A stretch of DNA of 64,000 nt from a virus. Numbering within the stretch: the first letter of the stretch is position 1; every line of letters starts with the position of its first letter. The stretch lies in IMG/VR virus record IMGVR_UViG_3300027749_000038. One strand, 5' to 3'. Below the pieces are notes generated by a model, which searched no databases, was not told the DNA's origin, and was given only the letters and a program-made list of their open reading frames with translations. The translations under genes and the position numbers were made by a program. Shown here one piece after another: positions 1,331-34,083 of the stretch.

Positions 1331-1942
1331 ATGAGTAATTTATTACTTCCTAAATCCAGCTTTATTCATATTCCTAAATGTGCGGGTACACATTTACAGA
1401 ACTTTCTATATCATCTAGAACTACCTAAATATAGATACAACGAACCCCAAGACGGGCATTTATTTCTTCATCAAATGACTCAAAGCAAGAATGCCTATAA
1501 TTTTTGTTTTGTGCGACATCCTTATACGTGGTGGCCTTCTTTTTACGAGTGGAGTAAACATACTAGATTTAGTGCAATGGAAAAGGAGTCACCTAATTTT
1601 GATACTTGGATTCAAGACTATGGAGCTTTTTGGATGGGCCTTTATACTCAATTGGTGAAGAGATATATAGGAGAAGATAATAACTATATCTCAGATATTA
1701 AAATAAATTTTATAGGCAAAACCGAAAATTTATATAAAGATTTATTTATAATTCTTAAAAATGCTGGGGAAGTGTTTGATGAAACCCAATTTAAAAAGTT
1801 GGTAGAAGAAACAGACTCCAGAGAATCATTAATTAAGTGGGCTAATAAACAGGAATATAATAGAGAAATATCTGAAGAATCTAAAAATATTATATATAAA
1901 ACTGAAAAATGGGTGTTTGATAGATTTGATTATAATCACTAA
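1331..1942 (+). CDS. Sulfotransferase family protein
   Basis: FIHIPKCAGT (5'-PSB PAPS-binding loop), FVRHPY (3'-PB motif) and FIGKTENL. Confidence 0.8.
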   Translation: MSNLLLPKSSFIHIPKCAGTHLQNFLYHLELPKYRYNEPQDGHLFLHQMTQSKNAYNFCFVRHPYTWWPSFYEWSKHTRFSAMEKESPNFDTWIQDYGAFWMGLYTQLVKRYIGEDNNYISDIKINFIGKTENLYKDLFIILKNAGEVFDETQFKKLVEETDSRESLIKWANKQEYNREISEESKNIIYKTEKWVFDRFDYNH

Positions 1943-1995
1943 TTAGATTAAAATTTTTATAAAATTGTGATTAGTTTCAGCATAAGTATTCACAT

Positions 1996-3936
1996 ATGGC
2001 TCTGCAAATCGTATCTAATTTACAAAATACTGGAAATCTTAATCTACAGGATGTTAGCTCAACTAATATCACTGCCTCACAGGGTGTAAGCTCTGTTGAC
2101 ATCTATGCCTCTGGGAACGTTGGTATTGGTATCAACGCTCCAACAGAAAAACTTCATGTAGTTGGCAATGTTCTTATTACTGGTAGTTTATCTGCGTTAG
2201 GAGACTTTACCTCTTTTCAAACCAATGTTACAGAGACAAGTGCTTTGTCGATTACTAACCTAGGAACCGGACCAGCTTTATTAGTAACACAAACTGGAGA
2301 CGCTCCTATTGCAGCATTTTATGATGATAATGGGTTGGTTAGTTTATTCGTAGATGGGCACACTAGTAGACCTGGTTATGTGGGTATCGGAACAGAACTT
2401 CCAAATGAAAAATTAACCGTGGTAGGAGCTATATCTGCTTCTGGGCATATTCATGGAGATGTTAGTCCTTCCATGGCCTTAATATTCAAAGGACCTTGGA
2501 ATAGTGCCACACATTACTTAGCTGGATTTATAGCAGAATATCAAGGTTCTAGTTATGTATGTGAAGTAGCAAACACTAACCACGTTCCGGCTGGAGACAA
2601 TGTAAGATGGAGTCTTTTAGTTGCAATGGGAGATCAAGGTTTCCAAGGCAATCAAGGCAATCAAGGTGACCAAGGCAATCAGGGATTCCAAGGAGACCAA
2701 GGCAATCAGGGATTCCAAGGCGATCAAGGAGACCAAGGCAATCAAGGTTTCCAAGGAGACCAAGGCAATCAAGGAGATCAAGGCAATCAAGGATTCCAAG
2801 GTGATCAGGGTGATCAGGGTGATCAAGGATTCCAGGGAGACCAAGGTAACCAAGGATTCCAGGGAGATCAAGGTAACCAGGGTTTCCAAGGGGACCAAGG
2901 TAACCAGGGTTTCCAAGGGGACCAAGGCAATCAAGGTTTCCAAGGCGATCAAGGTAACCAGGGCTTCCAAGGGGATCAAGGCAATCAAGGTTTTCAGGGT
3001 GATCAAGGTTTCCAAGGCGATCAAGGTTTCCAAGGCGATCAAGGCGATCAAGGATTTCAGGGTAATCAGGGGTTTCAGGGAAATCAAGGCGATCAAGGAT
3101 TCCAAGGCAATCAAGGCGATCAAGGATTCCAAGGCAATCAAGGCGACCAAGGCGACCAAGGTAATCAGGGATTCCAAGGCGACCAGGGAAATCAAGGATT
3201 CCAAGGCGACCAGGGAAATCAAGGATTCCAAGGCGACCAAGGTGATCAAGGCAATCAGGGATTCCAAGGAGACCAAGGCAATCAGGGATTCCAAGGAGAT
3301 CAAGGCAATCAGGGTGATCAAGGCAATCAAGGATTCCAAGGTGATCAAGGCAATCAAGGATTCCAAGGTGATCAGGGAGATCAAGGCAATCAAGGATTCC
3401 AGGGCAATCAAGGTGATCAAGGATTCCAAGGCGCTCAGGGGGATCAAGGCAACCAAGGATTCCAAGGAGATCAGGGTGATCAAGGAGATCAAGGTGATCA
3501 AGGCAATCAAGGTTTCCAAGGAGACCAAGGCAATCAAGGTTTCCAAGGGGACCAAGGCAATCAAGGCAATCAAGGATTCCAAGGCAATCAAGGTTTCCAG
3601 GGTAATCAGGGAGATCAAGGCAATCAAGGTTTCCAAGGCAATCAAGGTTTCCAAGGGGACCAAGGCAATCAAGGATTCCAAGGCGCCCAGGGTGATCAAG
3701 GCAATCAAGGACCTGTTGGTTTGGTAAAATATGTAGAGACCAACACCCTCACCGGTGCTGCTACAGAAATTGTAAGTGTTTATCATAATCTCAATACAGA
3801 TGTTGTACCAGTAGTTTATAATGTCAGCACTGGAGATGTTATCTTGGTAGCAGCCACAGTTATTACTTCAAATCGTTTAGACTTTACTTTTAATAATGAA
3901 GCTCCTGGTGATTATAAGTTTTTAATATTTGGTTAA
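1996..3936 (+). CDS. Collagen-like fibre (tail fibre or whisker)
   Basis: N-terminal GNVGIG...EKLHVVGN fibre-type repeats, FKGPW...YQGSSYVC module, then 120 G-X-Q triplets and a short C-terminal domain. Confidence 0.8.
   Translation: MALQIVSNLQNTGNLNLQDVSSTNITASQGVSSVDIYASGNVGIGINAPTEKLHVVGNVLITGSLSALGDFTSFQTNVTETSALSITNLGTGPALLVTQTGDAPIAAFYDDNGLVSLFVDGHTSRPGYVGIGTELPNEKLTVVGAISASGHIHGDVSPSMALIFKGPWNSATHYLAGFIAEYQGSSYVCEVANTNHVPAGDNVRWSLLVAMGDQGFQGNQGNQGDQGNQGFQGDQGNQGFQGDQGDQGNQGFQGDQGNQGDQGNQGFQGDQGDQGDQGFQGDQGNQGFQGDQGNQGFQGDQGNQGFQGDQGNQGFQGDQGNQGFQGDQGNQGFQGDQGFQGDQGFQGDQGDQGFQGNQGFQGNQGDQGFQGNQGDQGFQGNQGDQGDQGNQGFQGDQGNQGFQGDQGNQGFQGDQGDQGNQGFQGDQGNQGFQGDQGNQGDQGNQGFQGDQGNQGFQGDQGDQGNQGFQGNQGDQGFQGAQGDQGNQGFQGDQGDQGDQGDQGNQGFQGDQGNQGFQGDQGNQGNQGFQGNQGFQGNQGDQGNQGFQGNQGFQGDQGNQGFQGAQGDQGNQGPVGLVKYVETNTLTGAATEIVSVYHNLNTDVVPVVYNVSTGDVILVAATVITSNRLDFTFNNEAPGDYKFLIFG
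2629..3708 (+). repeat. 1080-bp collagen repeat: 120 Gly-X-Gln triplets (X = D, F, N, rarely A)
   Basis: 9-nt periodic ggN-NNN-caa/cag repeat read directly; translation GDQ/GFQ/GNQ/GAQ. Confidence 0.95.
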
Positions 3937-3954
3937 TCTAAAATTAAATTAAAT

Positions 3955-3990
3955 AAAAAGAGCCTCTACTAAAATAGAGGCTCTTTTTTT
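3955..3990. terminator. Rho-independent terminator, possibly bidirectional
   Basis: Perfect 14-bp inverted repeat aaaaagagcctcta / tagaggctcttttt with a 6-nt loop and a T-run, directly after the fibre gene. Confidence 0.85.
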
Positions 3991-4034
3991 GTTTTAATGT
4001 TGGGTTTTTTTTATTTACACGGATAATTAAAATC

Positions 4035-5213
4035 ATGAAACTTTCAATTTTCACACCTACCAACAATATTCAATGGATTCATCTTCCGTACAATTCTATT
4101 ATTAAACAAATAGAATTAGATTCTACACTAGATGTAGAATGGGTTATTGTTCCTAATAATAATGTAGAGGTTCCTGAAGATATTAAAAATAAAAGTTGGG
4201 TCAAAATTATTAGATGTTCTAATGATATGAAAAATATTGGAGCTCTTAAGAAATTTGCTTGTTCTGCAGCAACTGGAGATGTTTTTATAGAACTAGATCA
4301 TGATGATGAATTGCTACCCACATCCCTGAGAAAGATTCATGATGCTATGGTAGACAAACCTAATTCATTTCTTTATTCAGACAAAACCGTAGTAAGGCAT
4401 GATGACAAACCTCATTTATATAGCAATGTGTACGGATGGGAGCATTATGCATATGAAAAAGAAACCATCAATAAATCTTTTCTTCCTGATGCTAGATCTT
4501 TGTGTCAAATTTTTTATGCACCGGATCACGTGCGAGTTTGGTCTAGGAAAGCTTATGAATTGTCTGGAGGTCATGATGAAAAATTATTTGTTGGTGATGA
4601 TCATGATTTGATAATTAAAACCTATTTGGCAGGTAGTGAATTTATTTTTCTAGAAGAACCCTTATACACTTACTACATTCACGGAACCAATTCTTGGCTT
4701 CAGAATTGTCAAGCAGTTCAAGTACAGCAACATAATAATACTGATAAATATCTTCGTAGATTGGTGCAGGAATGGTGTAAGAGAGAAAATCTTCCTACAG
4801 TAAAATATCCTACACCAGATTTCTATAATGCAGCTCCTAATAGTGTAGGTTGTATTGAGGCTAATGATGTAATAGCCTCTATTCCCGCTGGTAAAGAAGT
4901 AATTCATTTTATGAATCGTTGTTATGATATCTTAGCTCCAGGAGGTTGGTTGTTGGTAGATGTACCTTCCACAGATGGTCGTGGAGCTTTTTGTGATCCT
5001 CTTCACGTCTCTTTTTGGAATGAATTGAGTTTCCGTTATTATACTAATAAAAACTTTTCAAAGTTTATTCCGGAATATAAAGGAAGATTTCAACAGGTAA
5101 TTCTAAAGACTCATAACCCAAGTAAGTGGCATGAGGAAAATAAAGTTCCATATGTAAGAGCAGATATGTGTGCCATCAAAGGTCAGCGCCAGCCAGGGCA
5201 ATGTTTTATCTAA
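4035..5213 (+). CDS. GT2 glycosyltransferase fused to a class I SAM-methyltransferase-like domain
   Basis: LSIFTPT start, ELDHDD DxD motif; C-terminal LAPGGWLLVDVPSTDGRGAFCDPLHVSFWN. Confidence 0.75.
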   Translation: MKLSIFTPTNNIQWIHLPYNSIIKQIELDSTLDVEWVIVPNNNVEVPEDIKNKSWVKIIRCSNDMKNIGALKKFACSAATGDVFIELDHDDELLPTSLRKIHDAMVDKPNSFLYSDKTVVRHDDKPHLYSNVYGWEHYAYEKETINKSFLPDARSLCQIFYAPDHVRVWSRKAYELSGGHDEKLFVGDDHDLIIKTYLAGSEFIFLEEPLYTYYIHGTNSWLQNCQAVQVQQHNNTDKYLRRLVQEWCKRENLPTVKYPTPDFYNAAPNSVGCIEANDVIASIPAGKEVIHFMNRCYDILAPGGWLLVDVPSTDGRGAFCDPLHVSFWNELSFRYYTNKNFSKFIPEYKGRFQQVILKTHNPSKWHEENKVPYVRADMCAIKGQRQPGQCFI

Positions 5214-6118
5214 CAGTTAAAGAAAAATACATGAGTTAATTGAGAATTTTCTTTATCTGAACCAAAATATCCCGTAGAGGCATGCAGAGCTTTAGAGTTA
5301 TAAATAACTAATCTGTTATAGATATTTGCAACACAGTCTACAGATTCTAGATTGTGTCTATCATAAAAGTTATTTTTAAAAGATCTTTGATTGATTTCTA
5401 TAACAGAAGAATCAAATCTCTGTGTGTCTTTAGGGATTGCGGAATGAGTCAATCCCGTAATCTTGCTTTTAAAATTTGAAAATCCAGTAGTTAAAGGAGC
5501 TCCTGGACTGAGGTATATTACAGCAGCATATTCTTGTTCGTCTATACGATGTACAATACGATCTTCCGCTGTGAAATATTGGAAAATACCAGAAGAACCA
5601 GTAAACTCTTTAATAGGTCTTCCTATGTGTCTTTCAAAGGTTTTCTTAATCCAGGAAGGTATAAAGGATTTTAAGGTTCTTTCACCTCTAAGACATTCTT
5701 TCTTGGATACAAATTTTTGAGTCAAAGCATAATCTCTGACTTTGTCTGGATCTTTATAAAAATTATCCACTACAATAATTTCAGGATTAGAAAGATTATT
5801 AGACACCAAAACGGATTCTAAAATTTCTACCCGAACCGTAAAAGTGATCTCTCCGTTGACTAAAATATTAACAGTCTCGGTTTTAGGTTCTAAAATTATA
5901 TTAAATCCACATCTTAGATAATTTATATGTTCTTCTCTGTAAAATTTATAAATGTCTGGTCTCTCTTCTGGAGTGATGCTAATAAAACCATCACAACTTA
6001 CCCCACAAGAGTCAGCAAAAATTAATGGTACCACCCAACCTTTAACATGATAAAACTTTCCTTCTTTTTTGACACTGTCTATAGTTCCTATAAAATTTTC
6101 ATTTAAAGTCTGGTGCAT
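5210..6118 (-). CDS. 2OG-Fe(II) oxygenase-like protein (DUF6445-like) with an N-terminal beta domain
   Basis: IIVVDNFYKDPDKVRDYAL, AAVIYLSP, NIYNRLVIY...LH and VFFF motifs. Confidence 0.65.
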   Translation of the reverse strand: MHQTLNENFIGTIDSVKKEGKFYHVKGWVVPLIFADSCGVSCDGFISITPEERPDIYKFYREEHINYLRCGFNIILEPKTETVNILVNGEITFTVRVEILESVLVSNNLSNPEIIVVDNFYKDPDKVRDYALTQKFVSKKECLRGERTLKSFIPSWIKKTFERHIGRPIKEFTGSSGIFQYFTAEDRIVHRIDEQEYAAVIYLSPGAPLTTGFSNFKSKITGLTHSAIPKDTQRFDSSVIEINQRSFKNNFYDRHNLESVDCVANIYNRLVIYNSKALHASTGYFGSDKENSQLTHVFFFNC

Positions 6119-6151
6119 ATTTTATTTACCATTTTAATTAAATAAGATTTT

Positions 6152-6778
6152 ATGAATTTAAAACCAAAAGTCGCAATTATTACTTCTACCTATAAAAGAC
6201 CTTTAGATATAGTAGATAGATGCATAAGATCGGTGCAATGGCAAACCTATGGAATGGAGAACATAGTACATTATATATGCCACGATGGTCCTCGAGAAGA
6301 TTTTTTAGAATGTCCGGAATGGAATAATGTAATATATACCGAGGTTCCTTATAATACTAATAGTTACGGAGCAGGGGTCAGACAATATGTATTAGACCAA
6401 TACATCAAAACTCAATCAGATATTAAGTATGTAGTCCATTTAGATGATGATAATCTTTTATTTCCAGACTTTATAGAGTCTCATGTTTCTATTTTAGAAT
6501 CTAATTCAGAGGCTCAATTTTCTATATGTAAAATTTTACATCTAGGACCTTTACCCGGGCATCTCGGAAAACCTCCTCAAATTTTAAACGGCACTCCTCC
6601 GGTGTTTCAAAACATAGATACTCTGCAAGTAATGGTAAGAGTTCCTTCTATGGTTGCTTGTGGTTGGACACAACATCAAGGAAATGCTGGTTATTGTAAT
6701 GATGGATATACCTATGATCGTTTGGGTAAATTGTTTAAGTGGGTGGAATTGCCTAAATTACTAGCAATACATCTATAA
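6152..6778 (+). CDS. GT2-like glycosyltransferase
   Basis: VAIITSTYKR, ICHDG, HLDDDN motifs. Confidence 0.75.
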   Translation: MNLKPKVAIITSTYKRPLDIVDRCIRSVQWQTYGMENIVHYICHDGPREDFLECPEWNNVIYTEVPYNTNSYGAGVRQYVLDQYIKTQSDIKYVVHLDDDNLLFPDFIESHVSILESNSEAQFSICKILHLGPLPGHLGKPPQILNGTPPVFQNIDTLQVMVRVPSMVACGWTQHQGNAGYCNDGYTYDRLGKLFKWVELPKLLAIHL

Positions 6779-6804
6779 GTATAAATATATAGATAAGTAA
6801 TTTT

Positions 6805-7041
6805 ATGAGAATAATTGTACAACCGGAAATTGTAATAGAATTGGATGAAGTAACCATTACTCATATCAATGACTCGGCTAGAGATCAAAGAATTTCCGCT
6901 AAAGTAAGTGGTTTACAACGTTCTGTGTTGCTGTGGGGTCCAGAAGAATATAACGGACATGAAGCTAAAAACTGGACCGATGAAACAGCTTTTCTCAAAC
7001 TTTTAGAAAAGCTTTCTTTAAAAGCAGTTCCTTTTCTTTAA
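6805..7041 (+). CDS. Hypothetical protein
   Basis: 78-aa ORF preceded by TATAAATA (6780-6787) and ATAAGTA (6793-6799). Confidence 0.6.
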   Translation: MRIIVQPEIVIELDEVTITHINDSARDQRISAKVSGLQRSVLLWGPEEYNGHEAKNWTDETAFLKLLEKLSLKAVPFL

Positions 7042-7049
7042 AATAAGAG

Positions 7050-7077
7050 TTGATCTTATTTAGTTTTCACATATTAT
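7050..7077 (+). promoter_or_regulatory. Sigma70-like promoter for ssrA
   Basis: TTGATC (7050-7055), 16-nt spacer, TATTAT (7072-7077), about 20 nt upstream of the tmRNA 5' end. Confidence 0.5.
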
Positions 7078-7195
7078 GTGAATAGTTCTTTTACATTTGG
7101 GGGCGTATTGGTTTCGACTGAGCGCTGAAAACCTTAGTTGCAATCCGAGGAAGTCTGGTTGGCCTCGTTAAAATCTCTGGACAAAACAAATAAAT

Positions 7196-7297
7196 GCAAC
7201 TGATAATACAGAAGCACTCTTAGCTGAAGCAACGCACATCATCAACAACTTCGAGGACTACCTCGCAGAAGAAGAGATGTACGATCTCGCAGCCTAA
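7196..7297 (+). other. tmRNA tag reading frame: (A)ATDNTEALLAEATHIINNFEDYLAEEEMYDLAA*
   Basis: Resume codon GCA after aaaUAaau; 33 open codons ending LAA-TAA. Confidence 0.85.
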
Positions 7298-7505
7298 CAA
7301 ACAGAAATGGATCCTATTAAAATTTCTGGAGTACCACAATAGGTTTGAGTAAAATCGTGAACCTCAGGAAAAACAATCGAGAGGAGTTGGGCCCCTTGCA
7401 GTCCAACAGGTAGACCTTAACTAGTTAGCAGCCTATGGTCTTTAAGAGCTAACAAAATATGATTGTAGACGCTAAAGTCTAAGTTTTCAGGACAGCGGTT
7501 CAACT

Positions 7506-7706
7506 GAAATGCAGGGTCGGCTATTTGGAAACGAATAGTTCGTAAGGTGTATATCGGCGAACGGTTTAATATCCCAACACCGAGAGAAATCATAGAAATA
7601 TGAGACTCGTAGAGACTACCATCACCTACCTAAAGTAGAAATACTAAGGTAAAGGAATAGTCCAGACTACAAACACGTATGTGGTAGTGAAAACTATAGT
7701 AGTATG
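7506..7706 (+). mobile_element. Group I intron, 201 nt, no ORF, in the tmRNA T-loop
   Basis: 5' exon ends in U7505 and intron ends in G7706; P3 AGGTG 7545-7549 / CACCT 7623-7627; P7 GACTA 7614-7618 / TAGTC 7658-7662 in AGAGACTA and AAGGAATAGTCC contexts; GAAA-capped P2, P6a and P8 hairpins; removal restores the T-arm exactly. Confidence 0.92.
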
Positions 7707-7771
7707 CCGCTCGCCTCCACTCTTTAAAAATAGAGGGTTCAACTCATGTTACTAGAATAAGTAGCATAAGT

Positions 7772-8425
7772 ATGAACCCTCTTTTAATTATAGAATGCAA
7801 TTTTTGTAAATTACCTAAATCCAAGCGTAATATAAAAAGACATCAAGAAAAATGTTTTTATAATCCTTCTTGTTTTATTTTTTGCAAAACTTGCAACAAA
7901 CAACTTTTTGCTAAAAAGAAATTTTGTAATAATTCATGTGCTGCAAAATTCACCAATACAACAAGAACAGTTGACAGATCCTATATAACAGACTCTTGGA
8001 AAGAAAATATTAGTAATAAAAATAAACAAAATTGGAAAGAAGGAAAGTTGACATATTCTCAAAAAAGATTATTTTCTTCAAAGATAGAAAGAGAAATAGT
8101 TGCTCATTTTAAGAAAAAGTTTCCAAGAGACAAATGGAAAAGTGGAGGTAGATTGGCCTTGAATGATACAGAAAATTTAAGCAGAGATTTGTGGTCTGAT
8201 AAGCTTAAAATATGTTTCGAATATGATGGAATATGGCATTTTAAAGACATATACGGTCAATTAAACAAAAAACAAATAAAAGATAACTTATTCGAACTGT
8301 GGTGTATTAACAACAATTATAGGTTGATACGAGTGGATGAAGATTCTTATAAAAATATACAGCAAATTGAAGATTTGATTTATAACAATTATAATAATAT
8401 TATTAAAATAGGAGACAGATATTAA
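7772..8425 (+). mobile_element. Free-standing endonuclease with a Vsr/EDxHD-like nuclease domain and Cys-rich N-terminus
   Basis: N-terminal CxxC, CKTC and FCNNSCAA motifs; C-terminal RDLW...ICFEYDGIWHF...KD...NNYRLIRV. Confidence 0.75.
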
Positions 8426-8434
8426 CTCTTCCTC

Positions 8435-8450
8435 CCCCTCGCCTCCACCA
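8435..8450 (+). repeat. Duplicated tmRNA 3' end with encoded CCA
   Basis: ctcgcctccac at 8438-8448 is identical to 7710-7720; this copy continues to ...CCA. Confidence 0.85.
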
Positions 8451-8541
8451 TTTTTATTTTAATTGGAGATATACTTCTCCATAAGCTTCTAAAAAAAGAG
8501 TTTCAAAATCTTTCATATCTCTTTACTTAGTGTCAATTAAA

Positions 8542-11853: not shown

Positions 11854-11928
11854 CTTCAGTCGGCATGCTAACGTCTTTTGGGTTAGCATTCCTAGTAGAG
11901 TTAGAATCCTCTTTGTGTAAGTAATTAC

Positions 11929-12513
11929 ATGAAGAGGATTTTTTTGTTGACGGCATTTGTATTAATGTCGTGTGCTCCTACTCGTTATATTCCCAAAGAC
12001 TCCGAACCATTATCTAGAGCTGTATATGCTACAAGTGATTCTATAGACAAGGGGCGTATAGATTTAGCCGATCAATATTCTAAAACTGTAATAACTTTAG
12101 TGGTGCCTCCCAAAGAAAGGATAGAAATACAAGCTCTTGTATCTAAATCAAAATCAAATCCAGTTGAAAAATCTAAAAATATTTTAGTTATTCCCAAACA
12201 CTTACAGGGAATGGAAGTAATAGTGGTTGATTCAATTGAATATCAAAAACTTTTAGAGATAAAAGAAAATGTGGTTCAAATACAAAAAGAGGTAATTGAT
12301 TTAAAAAATCAGAAAAAAGAAGTGGAAGATCAGTTAAGAGACCAAACTGAAGCCAAATCTCAATTATTGAAGGATTATGATAATTTAGTTTTAGAATTAA
12401 AAGACAAACAATTAACTCTGTTAAAAAGAAATATAACTATAGCGGGATTATTTCTTTTAATAGGTCTTTATATTTTCTTTAAAGTAAAAAAAATACTTCC
12501 TATATCGCTTTAA
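11929..12513 (+). CDS. Lipoprotein with coiled coil and C-terminal TM helix (unimolecular spanin candidate)
   Basis: MKRIFLLTAFVLMSC signal/lipobox; heptad-rich middle; ITIAGLFLLIGLYIFF-KVKK at the C-terminus; adjacent to holin and endolysin. Confidence 0.6.
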   Translation: MKRIFLLTAFVLMSCAPTRYIPKDSEPLSRAVYATSDSIDKGRIDLADQYSKTVITLVVPPKERIEIQALVSKSKSNPVEKSKNILVIPKHLQGMEVIVVDSIEYQKLLEIKENVVQIQKEVIDLKNQKKEVEDQLRDQTEAKSQLLKDYDNLVLELKDKQLTLLKRNITIAGLFLLIGLYIFFKVKKILPISL

Positions 12514-12516
12514 ATT

Positions 12517-12645
12517 ATGTATCATTTTTTATCAGACTTTGTTTTGTATATTTTAGATGTATTGTGTGACCTTGAACAATATCATCCGAGAAAATGTTAT
12601 TTTGTATTAGGGGTATTAACTGCCCTAATTATAAAATATGGATAA
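12517..12645 (+). CDS. Small hydrophobic protein (42 aa), not in the ORF track
   Basis: MYHFLSDFVLYILDVLCDLEQYHPRKCYFVLGVLTALIIKYG*, fills the gap and overlaps the next start. Confidence 0.4.
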   Translation: MYHFLSDFVLYILDVLCDLEQYHPRKCYFVLGVLTALIIKYG

Positions 12646-12982
12646 AAAGAGAGATCTTCACAGCAAAGAAAAATTCATGGAAGGCAATAGACAACGGTGG
12701 TTAGTTGTTTTTATGGCCTGCATGTTTATCGTTTTAATTTTAGATGCCACCGGACATGTACAAAAAGTAGATAGTTATCTGACATTTCTAACCTTTTTAA
12801 GTGGAGCATTCATCTTGGGTTACTCTGGAACAGAAACCATGAAGCTATTTTCGGTTAGTTCCACATCTCAAAATGTTTCCCAAAACATTAAACAAGAATC
12901 TAAATCAGAATCTACTCAAACTATTCATACAATAGAAGAGAAGTTGACCCACAATGTAAAGGAGGATGATTATAAGGTATGA
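12638..12982 (+). CDS. Putative holin (2 TM)
   Basis: Two hydrophobic helices, charged C-terminal tail, overlaps the endolysin start by 4 nt. Confidence 0.55.
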   Translation: MDKKRDLHSKEKFMEGNRQRWLVVFMACMFIVLILDATGHVQKVDSYLTFLTFLSGAFILGYSGTETMKLFSVSSTSQNVSQNIKQESKSESTQTIHTIEEKLTHNVKEDDYKV

Positions 12983-13590
12983 ATGCTCCATCCAAAAACA
13001 CTTTAGACTTGTTACTAGAATATGAGGTTGGTGGAGGCCAATCTTATTACAATAAAAAACTTTCTAGATTTACTTGGCCGGGTGGAGCCAGTGGACCTAC
13101 TATAGGAATTGGTATAGATACTGCTTATTATACTTCAAAAGAGTTAGAAGAATTATTTAATTTTTTACCACAAGATCAAATTGAATTAATCCAAAAAGCC
13201 CCGGGAAAGACTGGAGCTCGAGGTAAAGAGTATACTTTAATTTTAAGAAAAGCAAACATAGTGGTTACCTGGGATCATGCAATGGAAATTTTTAATAAAT
13301 TAACTTGGACTAAATTTTCGAAAGCTGCTGAAAAAACTTTTCCCGGATTGTCAGATCTTCATGAAGATGTTTATGGGGCTATTGTATCTTTGGTTTTTAA
13401 TAGAGGCACTAGTTTAGCTGGAGATACTCGCCGAGAAATGAGAGTCATTAAAATGTTAGTTCCAACAAAAAATTATGATAGAATATCTCAAGAGTTTAGA
13501 TCCATGAAACGCATATGGGAAGGTAAGGGGTTAGACGGTTTATTGCGCCGGAGAGATGCTGAAGCAGATTTGATTGAGAGTTGTGCTTAA
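12979..13590 (+). CDS. Endolysin, pesticin/T4-lysozyme-like muramidase
   Basis: LLEYEVG, PGGASGPTIGIGID, LVFNRG and GLLRRRDAEADL motifs. Confidence 0.8.
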   Translation: MNAPSKNTLDLLLEYEVGGGQSYYNKKLSRFTWPGGASGPTIGIGIDTAYYTSKELEELFNFLPQDQIELIQKAPGKTGARGKEYTLILRKANIVVTWDHAMEIFNKLTWTKFSKAAEKTFPGLSDLHEDVYGAIVSLVFNRGTSLAGDTRREMRVIKMLVPTKNYDRISQEFRSMKRIWEGKGLDGLLRRRDAEADLIESCA

Positions 13591-22326: not shown

Positions 22327-23382
22327 TTAGATTGTGCAACTTCCACCAACACAGCCACTTCCTTCGTCTGTAGCAGATTGTTTATCTCCGTCATAGGTAT
22401 TGCTGTAATAAAGAGTTTTTACACCCATACTATAAGCATATAACAATTCTTTAAGAATTACCGAATCCGGCAATGCCTTATTTGGATAATGATCATAATT
22501 GTAATACAGATTTGCTGAGATAGCCATATCTGTCCATTTTTGAATTGCTGCTACTATATTGATATAACCAGTGTTATCTGGCATATCAAATTGTAATGTA
22601 TACTTGTTTTTATATGTGGAATAATTTGGAACCAACAAAGGCACTGAATTAGCTTTAGAACCTTTATAGGTAAGCAAAGACCTAGGAGGTTCAATACCGT
22701 TGGTAGAATTTTGAATAACAGAACTAGATTCACACGGCATCATGGCGGTCAATGTAGAATGTCTCATACCATGAGCCAACACTTTCTGTCTTAATTCTTC
22801 CCAATCTAAAGAAGGTTTGCGGGTTACTACTTGATCTACTTTCTTTTTATAGGTGTCTATAGGCAAGATACCTTGAGAATATTTGGTGGTATTAAATTTT
22901 TCACACGGTCCCTTTTCTTTGGCTAGCTCTATAGAAGAGGAAATAAGGTGGTATTGTATTTTTTCCATCAAAGTATCTACAAAGTTAGGAGCCTCTGTAT
23001 CCATATACTTGAGATTATTCTTAGCTAAGAGAGCTGCTAAATTAGTAATTCCTACACCGAGACTTCTACGTTTTCTTGTAAAATTCTCTGCTGCTTTGGT
23101 GAAGTATTCTTGATAATCAATAATTTCATCTAGCATGCGTACAATTGTATCACAGGTATCTATTAAATCTTGATCATCTTTAATTTCTAACACATTAATA
23201 GCAGAAAGAACACAAATACCAATTTCCCCTTCTGGATCATCTATATGTTGAATTGGTTTGGTGGGATGAGTAACTTCAACACAATTGTGTACCAATATCT
23301 TATTGGCGTAAAAATTGCGGTTGTCTTTTACACTGATATCATATACTGCTTCTCGGTTTAACACTTTTTTAATTTTAATCAT
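22327..23382 (-). CDS. nrdA: Split-intein C-fragment (33 aa) fused to the NrdA C-terminal half
   Basis: MIKIKK...VYDISV...FYANKILVHN|CVEV; then ICVLSAIN, LGVGITNLA, MPCESSS, NGIEPP, KTLYY, C-terminal CxxxxC. Confidence 0.93.
   Translation of the reverse strand: MIKIKKVLNREAVYDISVKDNRNFYANKILVHNCVEVTHPTKPIQHIDDPEGEIGICVLSAINVLEIKDDQDLIDTCDTIVRMLDEIIDYQEYFTKAAENFTRKRRSLGVGITNLAALLAKNNLKYMDTEAPNFVDTLMEKIQYHLISSSIELAKEKGPCEKFNTTKYSQGILPIDTYKKKVDQVVTRKPSLDWEELRQKVLAHGMRHSTLTAMMPCESSSVIQNSTNGIEPPRSLLTYKGSKANSVPLLVPNYSTYKNKYTLQFDMPDNTGYINIVAAIQKWTDMAISANLYYNYDHYPNKALPDSVILKELLYAYSMGVKTLYYSNTYDGDKQSATDEGSGCVGGSCTI
23284..23382 (-). mobile_element. Split intein IntC
   Basis: Block F VYDISV and block G LVHN followed by +1 Cys. 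Confidence 0.9.
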
Positions 23383-23394
23383 AATTCTTGTTTT

Positions 23395-25044
23395 TTAAAT
23401 TAAATTTAAAACATCTGACTCCAACAATTCACTAGCCTTAACATAACCTCGGTTGTTAGTGTAAATTAAATGTTCCGGTGTGCAACGAATGGTTTGATTA
23501 GTTTCTGTATCTGTAATTTCAACCAATTCTGCTTCGGGATGAGTCATTGTAGCTCCGGTGAGCAATTTAAATTCATTTTCTTGCGTATCTAGATTCTTGG
23601 ACCAAACGTACATTTCTTCTAAATCCTCTTTAGAATTATATAATTCTGTTATTTGTTCTAATGTTAAAACTGATGACATGAAATTGTTATCTTCTTTGTT
23701 TTTGATAAGACACAAAACTTCCGTGTCACCTGTAAGACACAGATTTGTCATTGAAACTCTTTCTAAGAAAGATCCGTGTTCATTACAATGATCCATATTC
23801 ATCACGTAATATCTTCCAGTCTCTGTTCTTTCTTTAGTAAATTGAGACAATAGAGCAGAAGCTTTGACCTTCCTTTTATACTTTATCGATTTATCTGCTT
23901 CACATTTTATATATAATTCATCAAACTGCGGAAGACCAAAAGATTCGGTCAATTCTGGAACTTCATGTGGAGAAAATAATGTTATAGTTTCATTTTTCAT
24001 GAAGCGCTCATAAAACAATTTTGAAAATTGAATTACATAATCTACTTTTCTAACTCGATTATCTTCAGTACCACCGTTATTTTTTAAAGAGAGAATATCT
24101 TCAATTTCATAATGCCAGATTGGAAAGTTAACCGTAGCTCCCCCTCCTCTGATACCATTTTGTTGACAAGACTTGACGGTGGCTTCAAATACTTTAAGAA
24201 AAGGAATAATTCCGGTATGAATAACACTACCTCCTTTGATCTCTGTGCCAATTCCTCTAATACGACCAAAATTCAATCCGATTCCGTATCTTTGAGTAGT
24301 AGCAAAACCAGCAGCAGTATTGGAACTAAAAATAGATTCCTTAGTGTCACCCACATCAATGAGACAACAAGACGCGTATTGTTTAAGAAGACCTCTAAGG
24401 CCAGCCATTTGCGGGGTAGGTAAATTGATTTTAAATTTACTGAATTTGTCGTATGCTCTTTTGACATAATTTAAACGGGTATTTTGAGAATAATTAATAT
24501 GGCTTACCATGGCTGCAAGCATATAAGCAAATTGAGGAGTCTCGAATATCTCCTTGTTCTTTCTATTTTGAATGAGATATTTGTCACACAATTGCTTTAA
24601 TCCAGAATAGGTAAAGTTGTAATCTCTGTCGTGATTAATTTTGTCATCTAATTTGTCTATCTCTGCTTTAGAATATTTTTCTAAAATTTCTGGATGATAT
24701 AGATTTTTATCTGTATTGTTTTTAATAAAATCATAAAGTCGTGGAGGATTTTTTCCACCCCATACATCTTTACGTATTTGATAATTCAATAATCTAGAGG
24801 CAACCCATTGATAATTAGGATTCTCTTCATTAAACAAATTAATAGAAGCGTCTATCAGTACCTTGTGAATTTCCTTAGTAGTAATGCCATCCGCTAAATT
24901 TAATTTAGTATTAATAGCTATGTCCGAAACACTAACTCCGGTTATATTTTGGGATCCCCATTTTATTACTTTGTATATGTTTTCTACATTAAATGGAACC
25001 CGTGTTCCGTCCCGTTTTGTAACGTGAAGAATTTTTTCACTCAT
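23395..25044 (-). CDS. nrdA: NrdA N-terminal half (ATP cone) fused to a split-intein N-fragment (114 aa)
   Basis: VTKRDG ATP cone, ETPQF, LPTP, ASCCL, QNGIRGG; ends SMTNL|CLTGDT...CTPEH...VKASEL*. Confidence 0.93.
   Translation of the reverse strand: MSEKILHVTKRDGTRVPFNVENIYKVIKWGSQNITGVSVSDIAINTKLNLADGITTKEIHKVLIDASINLFNEENPNYQWVASRLLNYQIRKDVWGGKNPPRLYDFIKNNTDKNLYHPEILEKYSKAEIDKLDDKINHDRDYNFTYSGLKQLCDKYLIQNRKNKEIFETPQFAYMLAAMVSHINYSQNTRLNYVKRAYDKFSKFKINLPTPQMAGLRGLLKQYASCCLIDVGDTKESIFSSNTAAGFATTQRYGIGLNFGRIRGIGTEIKGGSVIHTGIIPFLKVFEATVKSCQQNGIRGGGATVNFPIWHYEIEDILSLKNNGGTEDNRVRKVDYVIQFSKLFYERFMKNETITLFSPHEVPELTESFGLPQFDELYIKCEADKSIKYKRKVKASALLSQFTKERTETGRYYVMNMDHCNEHGSFLERVSMTNLCLTGDTEVLCLIKNKEDNNFMSSVLTLEQITELYNSKEDLEEMYVWSKNLDTQENEFKLLTGATMTHPEAELVEITDTETNQTIRCTPEHLIYTNNRGYVKASELLESDVLNLI
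23398..23739 (-). mobile_element. Split intein IntN
   Basis: Block A CLTGDT, block B CTPEHLIYT; no endonuclease domain. Confidence 0.9.
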
Positions 25045-31260: not shown

Positions 31261-31578
31261 TTAAACTACCGGAGAGTTACTAGGTGCTGGAGTTGATGTT
31301 GGAGTTGTAGTTGTTTGAGCAGAATTATAATGAGCATCTAAATCCATTAAGGTTTTCTTTTCAGCATCTGTCAGAGATGTTGGAAGTTGTCCTGGGTTGG
31401 AATTTGTAATTGTAGCATTTATAGCCTTCAAAAAATTAGTCTTCCACAACTGATCTGTGTTTTTGGCAGCAAATAAAGAAGTTATACTCGGGAGAGCAGA
31501 ATTAGAAGAGCCGGGAGTTGGAGCCGCTTCGGAAATGTTGCTGAAAGTCTTTTGAAAGATACTATTAAATTTACTCAT
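31261..31578 (-). CDS. Hypothetical protein, possibly head-internal
   Basis: MSKFNSIFQKTFSNISEAA leader; Ser/Thr/Pro-rich. Confidence 0.5.
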   Translation of the reverse strand: MSKFNSIFQKTFSNISEAAPTPGSSNSALPSITSLFAAKNTDQLWKTNFLKAINATITNSNPGQLPTSLTDAEKKTLMDLDAHYNSAQTTTTPTSTPAPSNSPVV

Positions 31579-31659
31579 AAAGATATTTATCAAAAGGTTT
31601 GCTTATTCAAATTGGTTTTTGAGACTTTAAAATGGATAAGTAACTCTATATTATTTATT

Positions 31660-34083
31660 ATGTCTACTAGATACATAGCATCACCAGGCGTCCAAATTTC
31701 TGAGGTTGATCAATCCTTAACCACAAGAGCTCAAGCGGGTACTACAGTATTTATTACTGGATTTGCTCCTCAAGGGCATACAGACGAAGTAATCAACATT
31801 ACTTCTGTTTCTGATTTTGAATCTACCTTTGGATTACCTACGAATGAAGCCGAGCGTTATTTGTATCACACAGCTAAACAAATTTTAACTCAATCCCCAG
31901 CTAATTTAGCAGTTACCCGAATGGCCTACGGCTCTGGAATGGGAGCCGGTTTTGCTAATACCTATGCAGCTTTAGTTTATCCGGTTAAAGGAACCACCAC
32001 AGTACAAGTATCTACTGTATCTTCTATGTATTGTCCCAATCTTGTTGGAACTTATACTGTTTTTACTGGGGTTTCTACTATAACAACCGGAATGGATATC
32101 ACCACCATGGCGGTTGTTTCTTCTAGTGGATTTGTTAACACATCAGCTAACAATATAAACCAGGCAGTTCCAATCATTACTGGATATGTTTCTGTGTTAT
32201 CTTCTAAAATATTACCATATAGCCAAGCTACTAGTTTTACTGTACAAGAGCCAACATCAATTTTATTAAATGAAGGTGAGTATCACGACCTAGTTACAAA
32301 TGACGTAACTTGGAGTGATGGATATTCTTCTGTTAACATTAACAACAAAGATTATTTAAAATATGGTGGTATTGTTGTTGTAAATTCTTCAAAAACAACT
32401 ATTAATGACAAATATGAAGGTTATTATATTGGTTTAGCAGACAATTCAAATAATAACCCGGCCACCAATTTTGACGCCTTGACCGGTGCAAAAACAGTCA
32501 CAAGTGGAGCTAGTGCAGTACAGACTTGGACCAATATACCAGCTTCCCGTTTAAGTTTCAAGTTATCCAGTACTTCTACAGAAGGTGGAACTAGTATTTC
32601 TCAAGCTATTGAACAATTTCCCCTTTTGTCTGATTTTGGTTCACCAACTTATAATGACAGTTTGACCTTGATGTTGTTTAAAATAAGAACTTCCACTTAT
32701 GGACAAGATACTATTAAATTGGATTACATAATTCAAGAAGGACATACTGGTTCTTTATATTCTGGAAGAACACAAAACAATCAAAAGGGAGGAGCTCCAG
32801 TTTCTTTCTCCCTAGAAAAGATAACCAATCTAGAATCTTCAGACATTAAGATGATAGTCAATCCGTGGATTGCTAATAGTAATAATTGGTTAGATGGTTC
32901 TGGCAATGTAGTAAAAACTGTCAGACTAAACCCAGAAGCTAAAAACATATACGCAGCTGGAACTTTTGTTCAGGGTCAAGACGCGGGACAAGAACTTGGT
33001 AATGTTCCGGACAAATTAAAAAGAGTGTTAAACCGATTAGATGATATGGATACAGAATTAGATCTTTTCGCTGAAGCAGGCCTTGGCACTATTTACGCGG
33101 GGGCAAGAAGCAGAGAAAGATATTACCGAACTATAACTTCGGGTTATAGTGGTTTATATTTTGATACAACCCAACCAGTTCCGGCAACAGAATTGACTGC
33201 CTTATTTAATCAAGATACAGCAACTTTTAGTAGTGACTTGAAAGATGATTATGTGTCAATTGTATCTCAGATGGCTACCTTTGCAGAAAAAACCCGCAAA
33301 GACCATATGTTTATTGCAGATCCGTTGCGTTACATTTTCTTAAATGGTCCAGATGGTCCAAATGTCAAAGCAACTAAAAAATCTGGTTATAATTTTTCTA
33401 CAGACATTTTTTGGGCTCTTAAAAATCTATACGGAAGCATTGTGACTAGCTATGGAGCAACCTATGGTAATTGGGCAAAAGTCTCTGGTACTGATTCTAA
33501 CAATTATGTATGGATTCCTATGTCTGGATTTGTAGCTGCGGATATTGCGTTGTCTTCTGCAACCAATTATCCTTGGAGTGCTCCGGCTGGATTTGCTAGA
33601 GGTACTTTAAGTGGTATAACAGATATTGCTATTAATCCTACACAAAAACATCGTGACTTGTTGTATAAAATTAATATCAATCCAGTAGCTTACTTCCCCG
33701 GAGATGGATATGTTATCTTTGGACAAAAGACCCTCTTCAATAAGCCATCTGCGTTTGATAGAATTAATGTGCGTAGATTGTTCTTGACTCTTGAAAAAGT
33801 GGTACAGAGACTTTTAAAATACTATGTATTTGAAGGTAATACCTACACAACCCGAGTACGTTTGGTAAATTCTTTGTTACCATTATTTAATCAGGCCAAG
33901 AATAGTGATGGCTTATATGACTTCCGTATTATTTGTGATGAGCGTAATAATACACCAGAAATTATTGATGACAATACTTTAAAAATTGCAATTTACATTC
34001 AACCAGTCCGTACAGCGGAATTTATATTAGCGGATTTCGTGGCTACACGTTCTGGTTCAGATTTCAATGAAATTACCTCTTAA
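31660..34083 (+). CDS. gp18: Tail sheath protein
   Basis: SPGVQISEVD start, PWSAPAGFARG, LYKININPV, GQKTL, AFDRINVRRLF, YIQPVRTAEFI. Confidence 0.93.
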   Translation: MSTRYIASPGVQISEVDQSLTTRAQAGTTVFITGFAPQGHTDEVINITSVSDFESTFGLPTNEAERYLYHTAKQILTQSPANLAVTRMAYGSGMGAGFANTYAALVYPVKGTTTVQVSTVSSMYCPNLVGTYTVFTGVSTITTGMDITTMAVVSSSGFVNTSANNINQAVPIITGYVSVLSSKILPYSQATSFTVQEPTSILLNEGEYHDLVTNDVTWSDGYSSVNINNKDYLKYGGIVVVNSSKTTINDKYEGYYIGLADNSNNNPATNFDALTGAKTVTSGASAVQTWTNIPASRLSFKLSSTSTEGGTSISQAIEQFPLLSDFGSPTYNDSLTLMLFKIRTSTYGQDTIKLDYIIQEGHTGSLYSGRTQNNQKGGAPVSFSLEKITNLESSDIKMIVNPWIANSNNWLDGSGNVVKTVRLNPEAKNIYAAGTFVQGQDAGQELGNVPDKLKRVLNRLDDMDTELDLFAEAGLGTIYAGARSRERYYRTITSGYSGLYFDTTQPVPATELTALFNQDTATFSSDLKDDYVSIVSQMATFAEKTRKDHMFIADPLRYIFLNGPDGPNVKATKKSGYNFSTDIFWALKNLYGSIVTSYGATYGNWAKVSGTDSNNYVWIPMSGFVAADIALSSATNYPWSAPAGFARGTLSGITDIAINPTQKHRDLLYKININPVAYFPGDGYVIFGQKTLFNKPSAFDRINVRRLFLTLEKVVQRLLKYYVFEGNTYTTRVRLVNSLLPLFNQAKNSDGLYDFRIICDERNNTPEIIDDNTLKIAIYIQPVRTAEFILADFVATRSGSDFNEITS

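Follow-up and report, generated by a model that had tools for sequence, protein, structure and literature searches.

A probable IC3-type group I intron in the T-loop of a phage tmRNA gene, adjoined by a candidate homing endonuclease gene

The window analyzed here, i.e. the whole 64,000-nt stretch of viral DNA (IMG/VR record IMGVR_UViG_3300027749_000038), contains a tmRNA gene whose T-loop is interrupted by a 201-nt insert. The gene is followed by a long hairpin, an open reading frame (P0001) and a second, displaced copy of the tmRNA 3′ end (Table 1). The window has a G+C content of ~34% and its ORF matches include a tail sheath (31552–34083), a large terminase (41784–44705), a ribonucleotide reductase (RNR) and a DnaB-type helicase. 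Based on these matches and on IMG/VR contigs of up to 227 kb that carry a related tmRNA, we conclude that the source of the window is a large tailed phage with its own tmRNA. The RNR large subunit is divided between two adjoining ORFs on the minus strand (23395–25044 and 22327–23382), separated by a gap of 12 nt. The second ORF begins with a match to the C-terminal intein splicing motif (PF14890, E 1e-5, weaker than the curated cut-off), after which comes the RNR barrel domain, and the split gene at 22327–25044 is a candidate split intein.

Table 1. Features of the tmRNA locus (window coordinates).
Feature	Position	Strand	Description or basis
Promoter-like site	7050–7077	+	TTGATC, 16-nt spacer, TATTAT; 22 nt before mature 5′ end
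tmRNA gene	7099–7719	+	RF00023 match, ARAGORN after in-silico splicing, bases read directly
tmRNA 5′ exon	7099–7505	+	Acceptor 5′ strand, pseudoknot, mRNA-like body, T-stem 5′ strand, T-loop
Tag reading frame	7196–7297	+	Resume codon GCA at 7196, stop TAA 7295–7297, 33 residues, C-terminal YDLAA; ARAGORN
Putative group I intron, IC3-like, ORF-less	7506–7706	+	Covariance models R1/R2, pairing, family covariation
Intron guide sequence	G7515–U7517	+	Pairs with 5′ exon end
P2	7521–7527/7532–7538	+	Intron helix
P3	7546–7549/7623–7626	+	Intron helix, 4 pairs
P4	7554–7559/7578–7583	+	Intron helix
P5	7563–7564/7573–7574	+	Intron helix, 2 pairs
P6	7585–7586/7606–7607	+	Intron helix
P6a	7590–7594/7599–7603	+	Intron helix
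P7	7612 and 7614–7618 with 7658–7663	+	Bulged A7613
P8	7627–7631/7647–7651	+	Intron helix
P8a	7634–7637/7642–7645	+	Intron helix
Outer P9	7666–7670/7699–7703	+	Intron helix
Inner P9	7684–7688/7693–7697	+	Intron helix
ωG	7706	+	Last intron base, directly 5′ of 3′ exon
tmRNA 3′ exon brought by insertion	7707–7719	+	T-stem CCGCT, acceptor CGCCTCC, discriminator A
Long hairpin, then U-rich run	7732–7783	+	13 nt 3′ of tmRNA; folding of 7720–7800
ORF P0001, 217 aa	7772–8425	+	Cysteine-rich N-terminus, C-terminal Vsr/DUF559-like nuclease domain
Displaced original tmRNA 3′ end, CCCCTCGCCTCCACCA, with CCA	8435–8450	+	Synteny with intron-less phage restarts; blastn vs L015

The Rfam tmRNA model (RF00023) matches positions 7107–7506 with 65.7 bits (E 2e-23), and the match ends inside the T-loop. 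ARAGORN calls no gene on the unspliced window DNA; after deletion of exactly 7506–7706 it calls a tmRNA with a 33-residue tag (ATDNTEALLAEATHIINNFEDYLAEEEMYDLAA). The acceptor stem is formed by GGGGGCG (7099–7105) and CGCCTCC (7712–7718), followed by A7719 as the discriminator, and contains a G3:U70 pair, the feature recognized by alanyl-tRNA synthetase. CCA is absent from the DNA after A7719, where CTC comes next. The T-stem consists of AGCGG (7494–7498) and CCGCT (7707–7711), with the T-loop TTCAACT at 7499–7505. An earlier reading of the locus, made from the sequence only, had proposed a phage tmRNA and had named the tmRNA covariance model as one of its checks; the RF00023 match, the ARAGORN call and the phage ORFs of the window all agree with it.

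The tag is acidic and ends in YDLAA. At 33 residues it can be set beside the most frequent tmRNA tag length, which is 10 (PMC11915505). The related phage contigs L015 (33 aa) and L016 (32 aa) retain the frame, with some residues substituted, so that the tag is conserved within this lineage of phage tmRNAs; the tag of a third relative, the sister phage L096, is identical to that of the window. A consensus scan identified a promoter-like site upstream of the gene with 9 of 12 consensus matches. The same sequence is found in L096, and the site may function as the tmRNA promoter.

The insert lies precisely between nucleotide 7 of the T-loop and the 3′ strand of the T-stem, with U7505 at its position −1 and G7706 as its final base, and its borders are unique. 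Exact-word scans of IMG/VR identified related tmRNA genes in four phage contigs, and the intron-less contigs L015, L016 and L095 read the uninterrupted GGACAGGGGTTCAACTCCCCTCGCCTCCACCA. Because three relatives show the empty site, comparison places the insertion point at one phosphodiester bond, after loop nucleotide 7. Removal of the insert restores a 7-nt loop and a 5-bp stem (AGCGG-TTCAACT joined to CCGCT). The coordinates, the 201-nt length, the U at the 5′ splice site, the terminal G and the exact restoration of the T-arm had all been claimed from the letters alone, and each of them holds. The T-stem is AGCGG/CCGCT in the window and AGGGG/CCCCT in the intron-less alleles, a compensatory change that argues for pairing between the halves on either side of the insert.

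The insert can be folded into a compact group I core, with 50 of the 52 expected pairs formed. P7 is canonical: it has the pair G107-C158, A108 is bulged, and G109-C157 forms the guanosine site. The pairs G107-C158, G109-C157 and C111-G155 are invariant in all 25 family sequences with letters at these positions, while the terminal pair of P7 is A-U in the window, G-C in L001 and U-A in L003. The R-like and S-like elements are GUAGAGACUA and AAGGAAUAGUCC, respectively. P1 has three pairs only (the U7505-G7515 wobble, C7504-G7516 and A7503-U7517), and the guide sequence GGGUCG lines up with the guide of the L012 intron, which pairs there with GACU. Four hairpins are capped by GAAA (L2, L6a, L8a and L9), rather than the three counted previously. 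The weak points of the structure are a C-A mismatch in P4, the 2-pair P5, the 3-pair P1 and a P3 of four pairs, compared to six in its relatives. The P3/P7 core pairings recognized in the sequence-only reading hold, with the correction that P3 has only 4 base pairs. No convincing P10 was found in the window intron. A minimum-free-energy fold that pairs GUAG of J6/7 with CUAC was rejected, as CUAC covaries with GUAGU before ωG (ACCAC/GUGGU in high-GC relatives) and GUAG is invariant.

Covariance modeling supports this fold. Model R2 was built from nine tRNA-hosted introns whose borders were set from the anticodon loops, with the window sequence left out. Its single match in the 64-kb window is 7537–7706 (117.6 bits, E 4e-36 by a rough calibration), which is full length and ends at G7706. 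Model R1 scores the window intron at 171 bits and also ends at 7706. In a 28-sequence family alignment, 88.5% of cells are paired, a value that falls to 32–40% after sliding of the partners, and 47 of 53 pairs are altered on both sides; no shuffle reaches values as high as those observed. Since all helices except P3 were fitted to the model, the alignment is biased towards that structure. P3, which was kept out of the model, is 82.9% paired with covariation at 6 of 6 pairs, and so provides the P3–P7 pseudoknot, the defining feature of the fold. The covariation applies at the level of the family, as no second copy of the exact window intron was found in any collection searched. For L001, an alternative P3 (AGGTGA/TCACCT) was ruled out, since the alignment shows AUGCUU/AGGCAU.

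The Rfam group I model RF00028 (Intron_gpI; gathering cut-off 50 bits) has no match in 7050–7800, even at E up to 10. The sequence-only reading had proposed this search as a check, with missing covariance-model support for the core as a ground for refutation, and on those terms the result counts against it. RF00028 passes several relatives, namely L012 (54.7 bits), whose guide is the same as that of the window intron, L050 (74.1 bits) and L038 (56.1 bits). It finds neither the L001 nor the L003 intron, though excision at the borders of each would yield a normal tRNA anticodon loop; the L001 intron interrupts a tRNA-Arg gene of 286 nt annotated in a Microcoleus phage, and that of L003 (205 nt) occupies the classic tRNA-Leu(UAA) position. 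As these two are missed while the other three pass, we read the failure at the window locus as a limit of sensitivity. We therefore class the insert as a group I intron by structure, not as an RF00028 member by score. Matches to MIR405 in 7050–7800 merely reflect the hairpin at 7732–7783.

The 3′ half of the insert is ~80% identical to phage tRNA introns, as identified by blastn and a motif scan, and reaches 84% identity with L006 and L007, while the 5′ half has at most 57% identity to any relative. The nearest relatives of the intron are phage tRNA-Leu introns with 63–67% identity, L012 being at 67% and sharing the guide GGGUCG. L050, the only tmRNA-type relative found, is 56% identical. IC3 introns interrupt the anticodon loops of tRNA-Leu(UAA), tRNA-Arg(CCU), tRNA-fMet and tRNA-Ile, and tRNA introns at the classical Leu, Arg and fMet sites are all classed IC3 (bioRxiv 10.1101/2020.01.27.920355). 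The tRNA-hosted introns behind the covariance models are located at these classical sites. Phage copies of such introns are L003, L012, L006, L007 and L001. The window intron has the same core with GUAGAGACU and AAGGNAUAGUCC elements, helices P2–P9, GAAA loops on P2 and P9, a similar size and a short P1 (3–4 pairs in this group). It differs in its location, which is the T-loop of a tmRNA instead of a tRNA anticodon loop, and in a P3 that is 2 pairs shorter. Its lineage is IC3-like, and the other introns of that lineage lie in the anticodon loops of tRNAs. The proposal that the intron falls into a minimal size class is true at 201 nt; the size is compact yet typical of the lineage, and not exceptional, because the relatives in phage tRNA genes measure 205 nt (L003), 213 nt (L001) and 228 nt (L012).

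Several related loci show other arrangements. In L006 and L007, an ORF with HNH-like Cys/His motifs lies upstream of the intron core and extends up to P2; the window intron is ORF-less. The minus strand of L047 (~2262–2600 of the reverse complement) contains an intact tRNA-Leu, then a 5′-truncated group I intron and then a second copy of the tRNA 3′ half, which is a further leftover-exon layout next to an IC3 intron. The metagenome contig L050 (1–260) consists of GGACCGGGGTTCGATT, a 209-nt intron and CCCCGCGTGTCCA; it resembles the T-arm of a tmRNA, interrupted by an intron past loop nucleotide 7, and is a putative tmRNA. A narrow pattern combining the T-loop with R and S elements, whose silence does not imply absence, gave no match in viral contigs and no tmRNA intron among 32 genome loci; among 73 metagenome loci, L050 alone looks like another T-loop intron.

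Comparison with L015 indicates that the intron did not arrive on its own. By blastn, window 6169–7505 aligns with L015 610–1928, and window 8435–8492 with L015 1929–1985 (94.8% identity). Since the flanks are contiguous in L015 (1928/1929), 7506–8434 is one insertion of 929 nt with the intron at its left end, followed by a 13-nt 3′ exon without CCA, a spacer, the hairpin and a 217-codon ORF. The intron that the sequence-only reading had considered by itself is real, and is also part of a composite to which a replacement 3′ exon and a candidate endonuclease gene belong. The 11-mer CTCGCCTCCAC occurs in two copies in the window, compared to 0 of 100 shuffles. In both the window and L096, the endonuclease cassette has its right-hand junction immediately 5′ of CCCCT.

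The hairpin that separates the tmRNA from the ORF is unusually stable (−29.2 kcal/mol for 7720–7800, z −6.9), with none of 200 shuffles as stable, and is likely the tmRNA terminator. Its 5′ arm contains a copy of the T-loop junction, GGGTTCAACT (7735–7744), and its 3′ arm contains the start codon of the endonuclease (7772). GGTTCAACT is present in two copies in the window; the 9-nt T-loop repeat at 7736 could alone be due to chance, as two copies are seen in 11 of 100 shuffles. The hairpin may both end transcription of the tmRNA and keep the endonuclease silent on RNA from read-through. In L096, the start codon of the endonuclease is likewise surrounded by an analogous hairpin, AGTAATATT...AATATTACT.

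P0001 is a candidate free-standing homing endonuclease. An Atlas feature search relates it to phage clusters with DUF559 and NUMOD3 (score 0.96), and its homologues adjoin the tmRNA genes of L096 and L090. Its structure model has a pLDDT of only 54. With this model, Foldseek ranks Vsr (1vsr) first (probability 0.97, E 0.05) and the homing endonuclease I-Bth0305I seventh (E 0.14), with nothing at E ≤0.001. Searches of P0001 against Pfam and PHROG gave no match, and the sole match of a PDB sequence-profile search, a zinc finger, is by chance.

L096 is closely related to the window, with 96% identity over 1841–7503 (~5.7 kb upstream of the T-loop) and 97% over 11860–13349. Its tmRNA has a different intron of 205 nt at the start of the T-loop, which scores 80.8 bits with R1 and resembles L050. 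Downstream of this intron, L096 has a 3′ exon of its own, then an endonuclease of 241 aa with 60% identity to P0001 and finally the displaced CCCCTCGCCTCCACCA, as in the window. The borders of the L096 intron (5930–6134, minus strand) are ambiguous: a 7-nt T-loop is obtained only with G at −1 plus ωG, or with U at −1 plus an intron that ends in U, and the canonical combination of U-1 and ωG results in a loop of 8 nt. The two spliced forms are both recognized by ARAGORN. Across five related genomes, intron and endonuclease are both absent from L015, L016 and L095, and both present, in different versions, in the window and L096. In L090, an 11.7-kb phage contig, the locus at 304–1219 contains a 252-aa endonuclease homologue with 43% identity, and a circularly permuted, two-piece tmRNA gene (RF04321, 58.1 bits) begins at the end of this homologue. 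We infer from these comparisons that intron and endonuclease may move together as modules.

Alternatively, the intron could be genuine and unconnected with the neighboring ORF, which would be an unrelated gene or a selfish insertion, the intron having arrived by reverse splicing or ordinary recombination. The guide GGGUCG is common to the tRNA-Leu intron L012, whose target GACU is similar to the T-loop end AACU, as would suit ectopic reverse splicing, and the fold call for the endonuclease is weak. However, the intron, the replacement exon and the ORF form a single contiguous insertion relative to L015, L096 has swapped its versions of both intron and endonuclease while its flanks are still 96% identical, and a 43%-identical homologue is located directly upstream of the permuted tmRNA gene in L090. 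We consider such independence rather unlikely.

A reading in which the insert is a decayed, non-splicing group I intron and the tmRNA gene is dead, as a by-product of endonuclease-driven rearrangement, seems improbable to us. It would account for the lack of an RF00028 match, the short P1 and P3, the P4/P5 mismatches, the CCA missing from the DNA, the duplicated 3′ end that marks the locus as rearranged, and the L096 canonical borders, which never restore a 7-nt T-loop. Yet 50 of the 52 core pairs are intact, all family-invariant positions are retained, the T-stem halves flanking the intron have changed in a compensatory manner, the tag frame is unbroken and the same in L096, and the tmRNA body still scores 65.7 bits. 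The RF00028 result is shared by L001 and L003, whose borders give normal anticodon loops. Excision of the entire 929-nt block as a single long intron whose 3′ extension contains the endonuclease gene, with the downstream CCA copy (8435–8450) as the functional 3′ end, is very improbable and was rejected: although CCA is encoded in the downstream copy only and endonuclease genes after P9 are reported for 4 bacterial tmRNA introns (PMC11915505), there is no G before 8435 (the sequence is CTCTTCCTC directly followed by CCCCT), pairing of CCCCT with AGCGG would put a C-C mismatch at the center of the T-stem, both covariance models stop at 7706, straight after the P9 helices, and a terminator-like hairpin lies between the two copies of the 3′ end.

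The observation that led to this analysis is confirmed, and its first interpretation, i.e. a phage, a tmRNA and a compact T-loop group I intron, is supported. Our preferred reading, which we regard as highly probable, is a phage tmRNA with an IC3 group I intron in its T-loop, located inside a block in which intron and endonuclease would move together. Splicing would be expected to follow the standard group I pathway. The primary transcript would fold into the P3–P9 core, and a free guanosine bound at G109-C157 of P7 would attack after U7505, which would be held as a U-G wobble by the guide GGU (7515–7517). ωG7706 would next occupy the guanosine site, and the exons would be joined as GGUUCAACU to CCGCUCGCCUCCA (the sequence past the junction is also given as CCGCUCGCC). 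The T-arm would form only after exon ligation. Host enzymes would then trim the ends and add CCA, yielding a tmRNA of ~420 nt with the 33-residue tag. It is a reasonable inference that splicing gates functional tmRNA, because the T-arm cannot form before the exons are ligated.

Mobility would involve the block as a whole. The block provides its own 3′ exon and has displaced the original 3′ end downstream. P0001, if active as an endonuclease, would cut intron-less tmRNA genes at or near the T-loop site, and intron and endonuclease would spread as one unit by collaborative homing. The intron would keep the tmRNA gene functional while destroying the endonuclease target.

Collaborative homing, in which an ORF-less intron is paired with a free-standing endonuclease, has been described for the psbA intron of cyanophage S-PM2 and F-CphI, and T4 mobE trans-mobilizes the defunct I-TevIII endonuclease gene (PMC3984707, PMC6083498, PMC2790892). 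As in these systems, there are related phages that lack both the intron and the endonuclease, and the joint presence or absence of the two in five genomes fits collaborative homing as described for phage introns (PMC3984707). The window differs from S-PM2 and T4 in that the target is an RNA gene and the module contains a duplicate of the 13-nt 3′ exon, with the native 3′ end left as a remnant. Furthermore, the nuclease, which would cleave at or near the insertion site, looks Vsr/DUF559-like, not Endo VII-like or HNH.

Intron-form tmRNA genes are known from bacteria (Williams 2002, as cited in PMC11915505). A catalogue of 883 such sequences places all introns in the T-psi-C loop at four subsites, with ~96% of them short and ORF-less; subsite 7 is represented by 1658 genomes, and subsite 8 by 14 genomes, all Saprospiraceae (PMC11915505). 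The supplementary tally of that study covers bacteria and archaea only. The window site appears to be subsite 8 in its 1–8 internucleotide numbering, as judged from the figure legend. The window gene resembles the bacterial form in being a one-piece gene with a short, ORF-less group I intron in the T-psi-C loop that obeys the U-1/ωG rules and restores the loop exactly. It differs in its phage host, in the site after loop nucleotide 7, in an intron nearer to tRNA-Leu introns (63–67%) than to the tmRNA-type L050 (56%), and in the accompanying replacement 3′ exon and external endonuclease gene. Among the papers searched, none describes an intron-form tmRNA in a phage. We conclude that the locus is a known form of tmRNA gene in a phage, in which an intron drawn from the tRNA-type IC3 pool occupies a rare subsite, and that the module of intron and endonuclease is architecturally new for tmRNA genes.

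Intron-split tmRNA genes have so far been catalogued in bacteria only. ARAGORN, the Rfam tmRNA model and the Rfam group I model each fail at this locus, so that phage examples are left unannotated. The locus joins phage tmRNA, the phage pool of tRNA-type IC3 introns and endonuclease-driven homing, and supports the view of PMC11915505 that tmRNA T-loops have been invaded several times independently. Two near-identical phages with different intron/endonuclease pairs, together with intron-less relatives, constitute a natural system for testing co-movement into an RNA gene. We tentatively suggest that the tmRNA T-loop of this jumbo-phage lineage could be a contested homing site, at which self-contained modules overwrite one another, each composed of a minimal group I intron, a 3′ exon that replaces the native one, and the gene of a Vsr-like endonuclease outside the intron. 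This would explain why the two phages differ both in the intron/endonuclease pair and in the T-loop subsite, and why the native 3′ end is left as a remnant. If so, the intron would confer immunity to its partner endonuclease while the RNA gene stays working. Collaborative homing would then extend to a structural RNA gene, and the locus would offer a natural snapshot of the assembly of a composite mobile intron.
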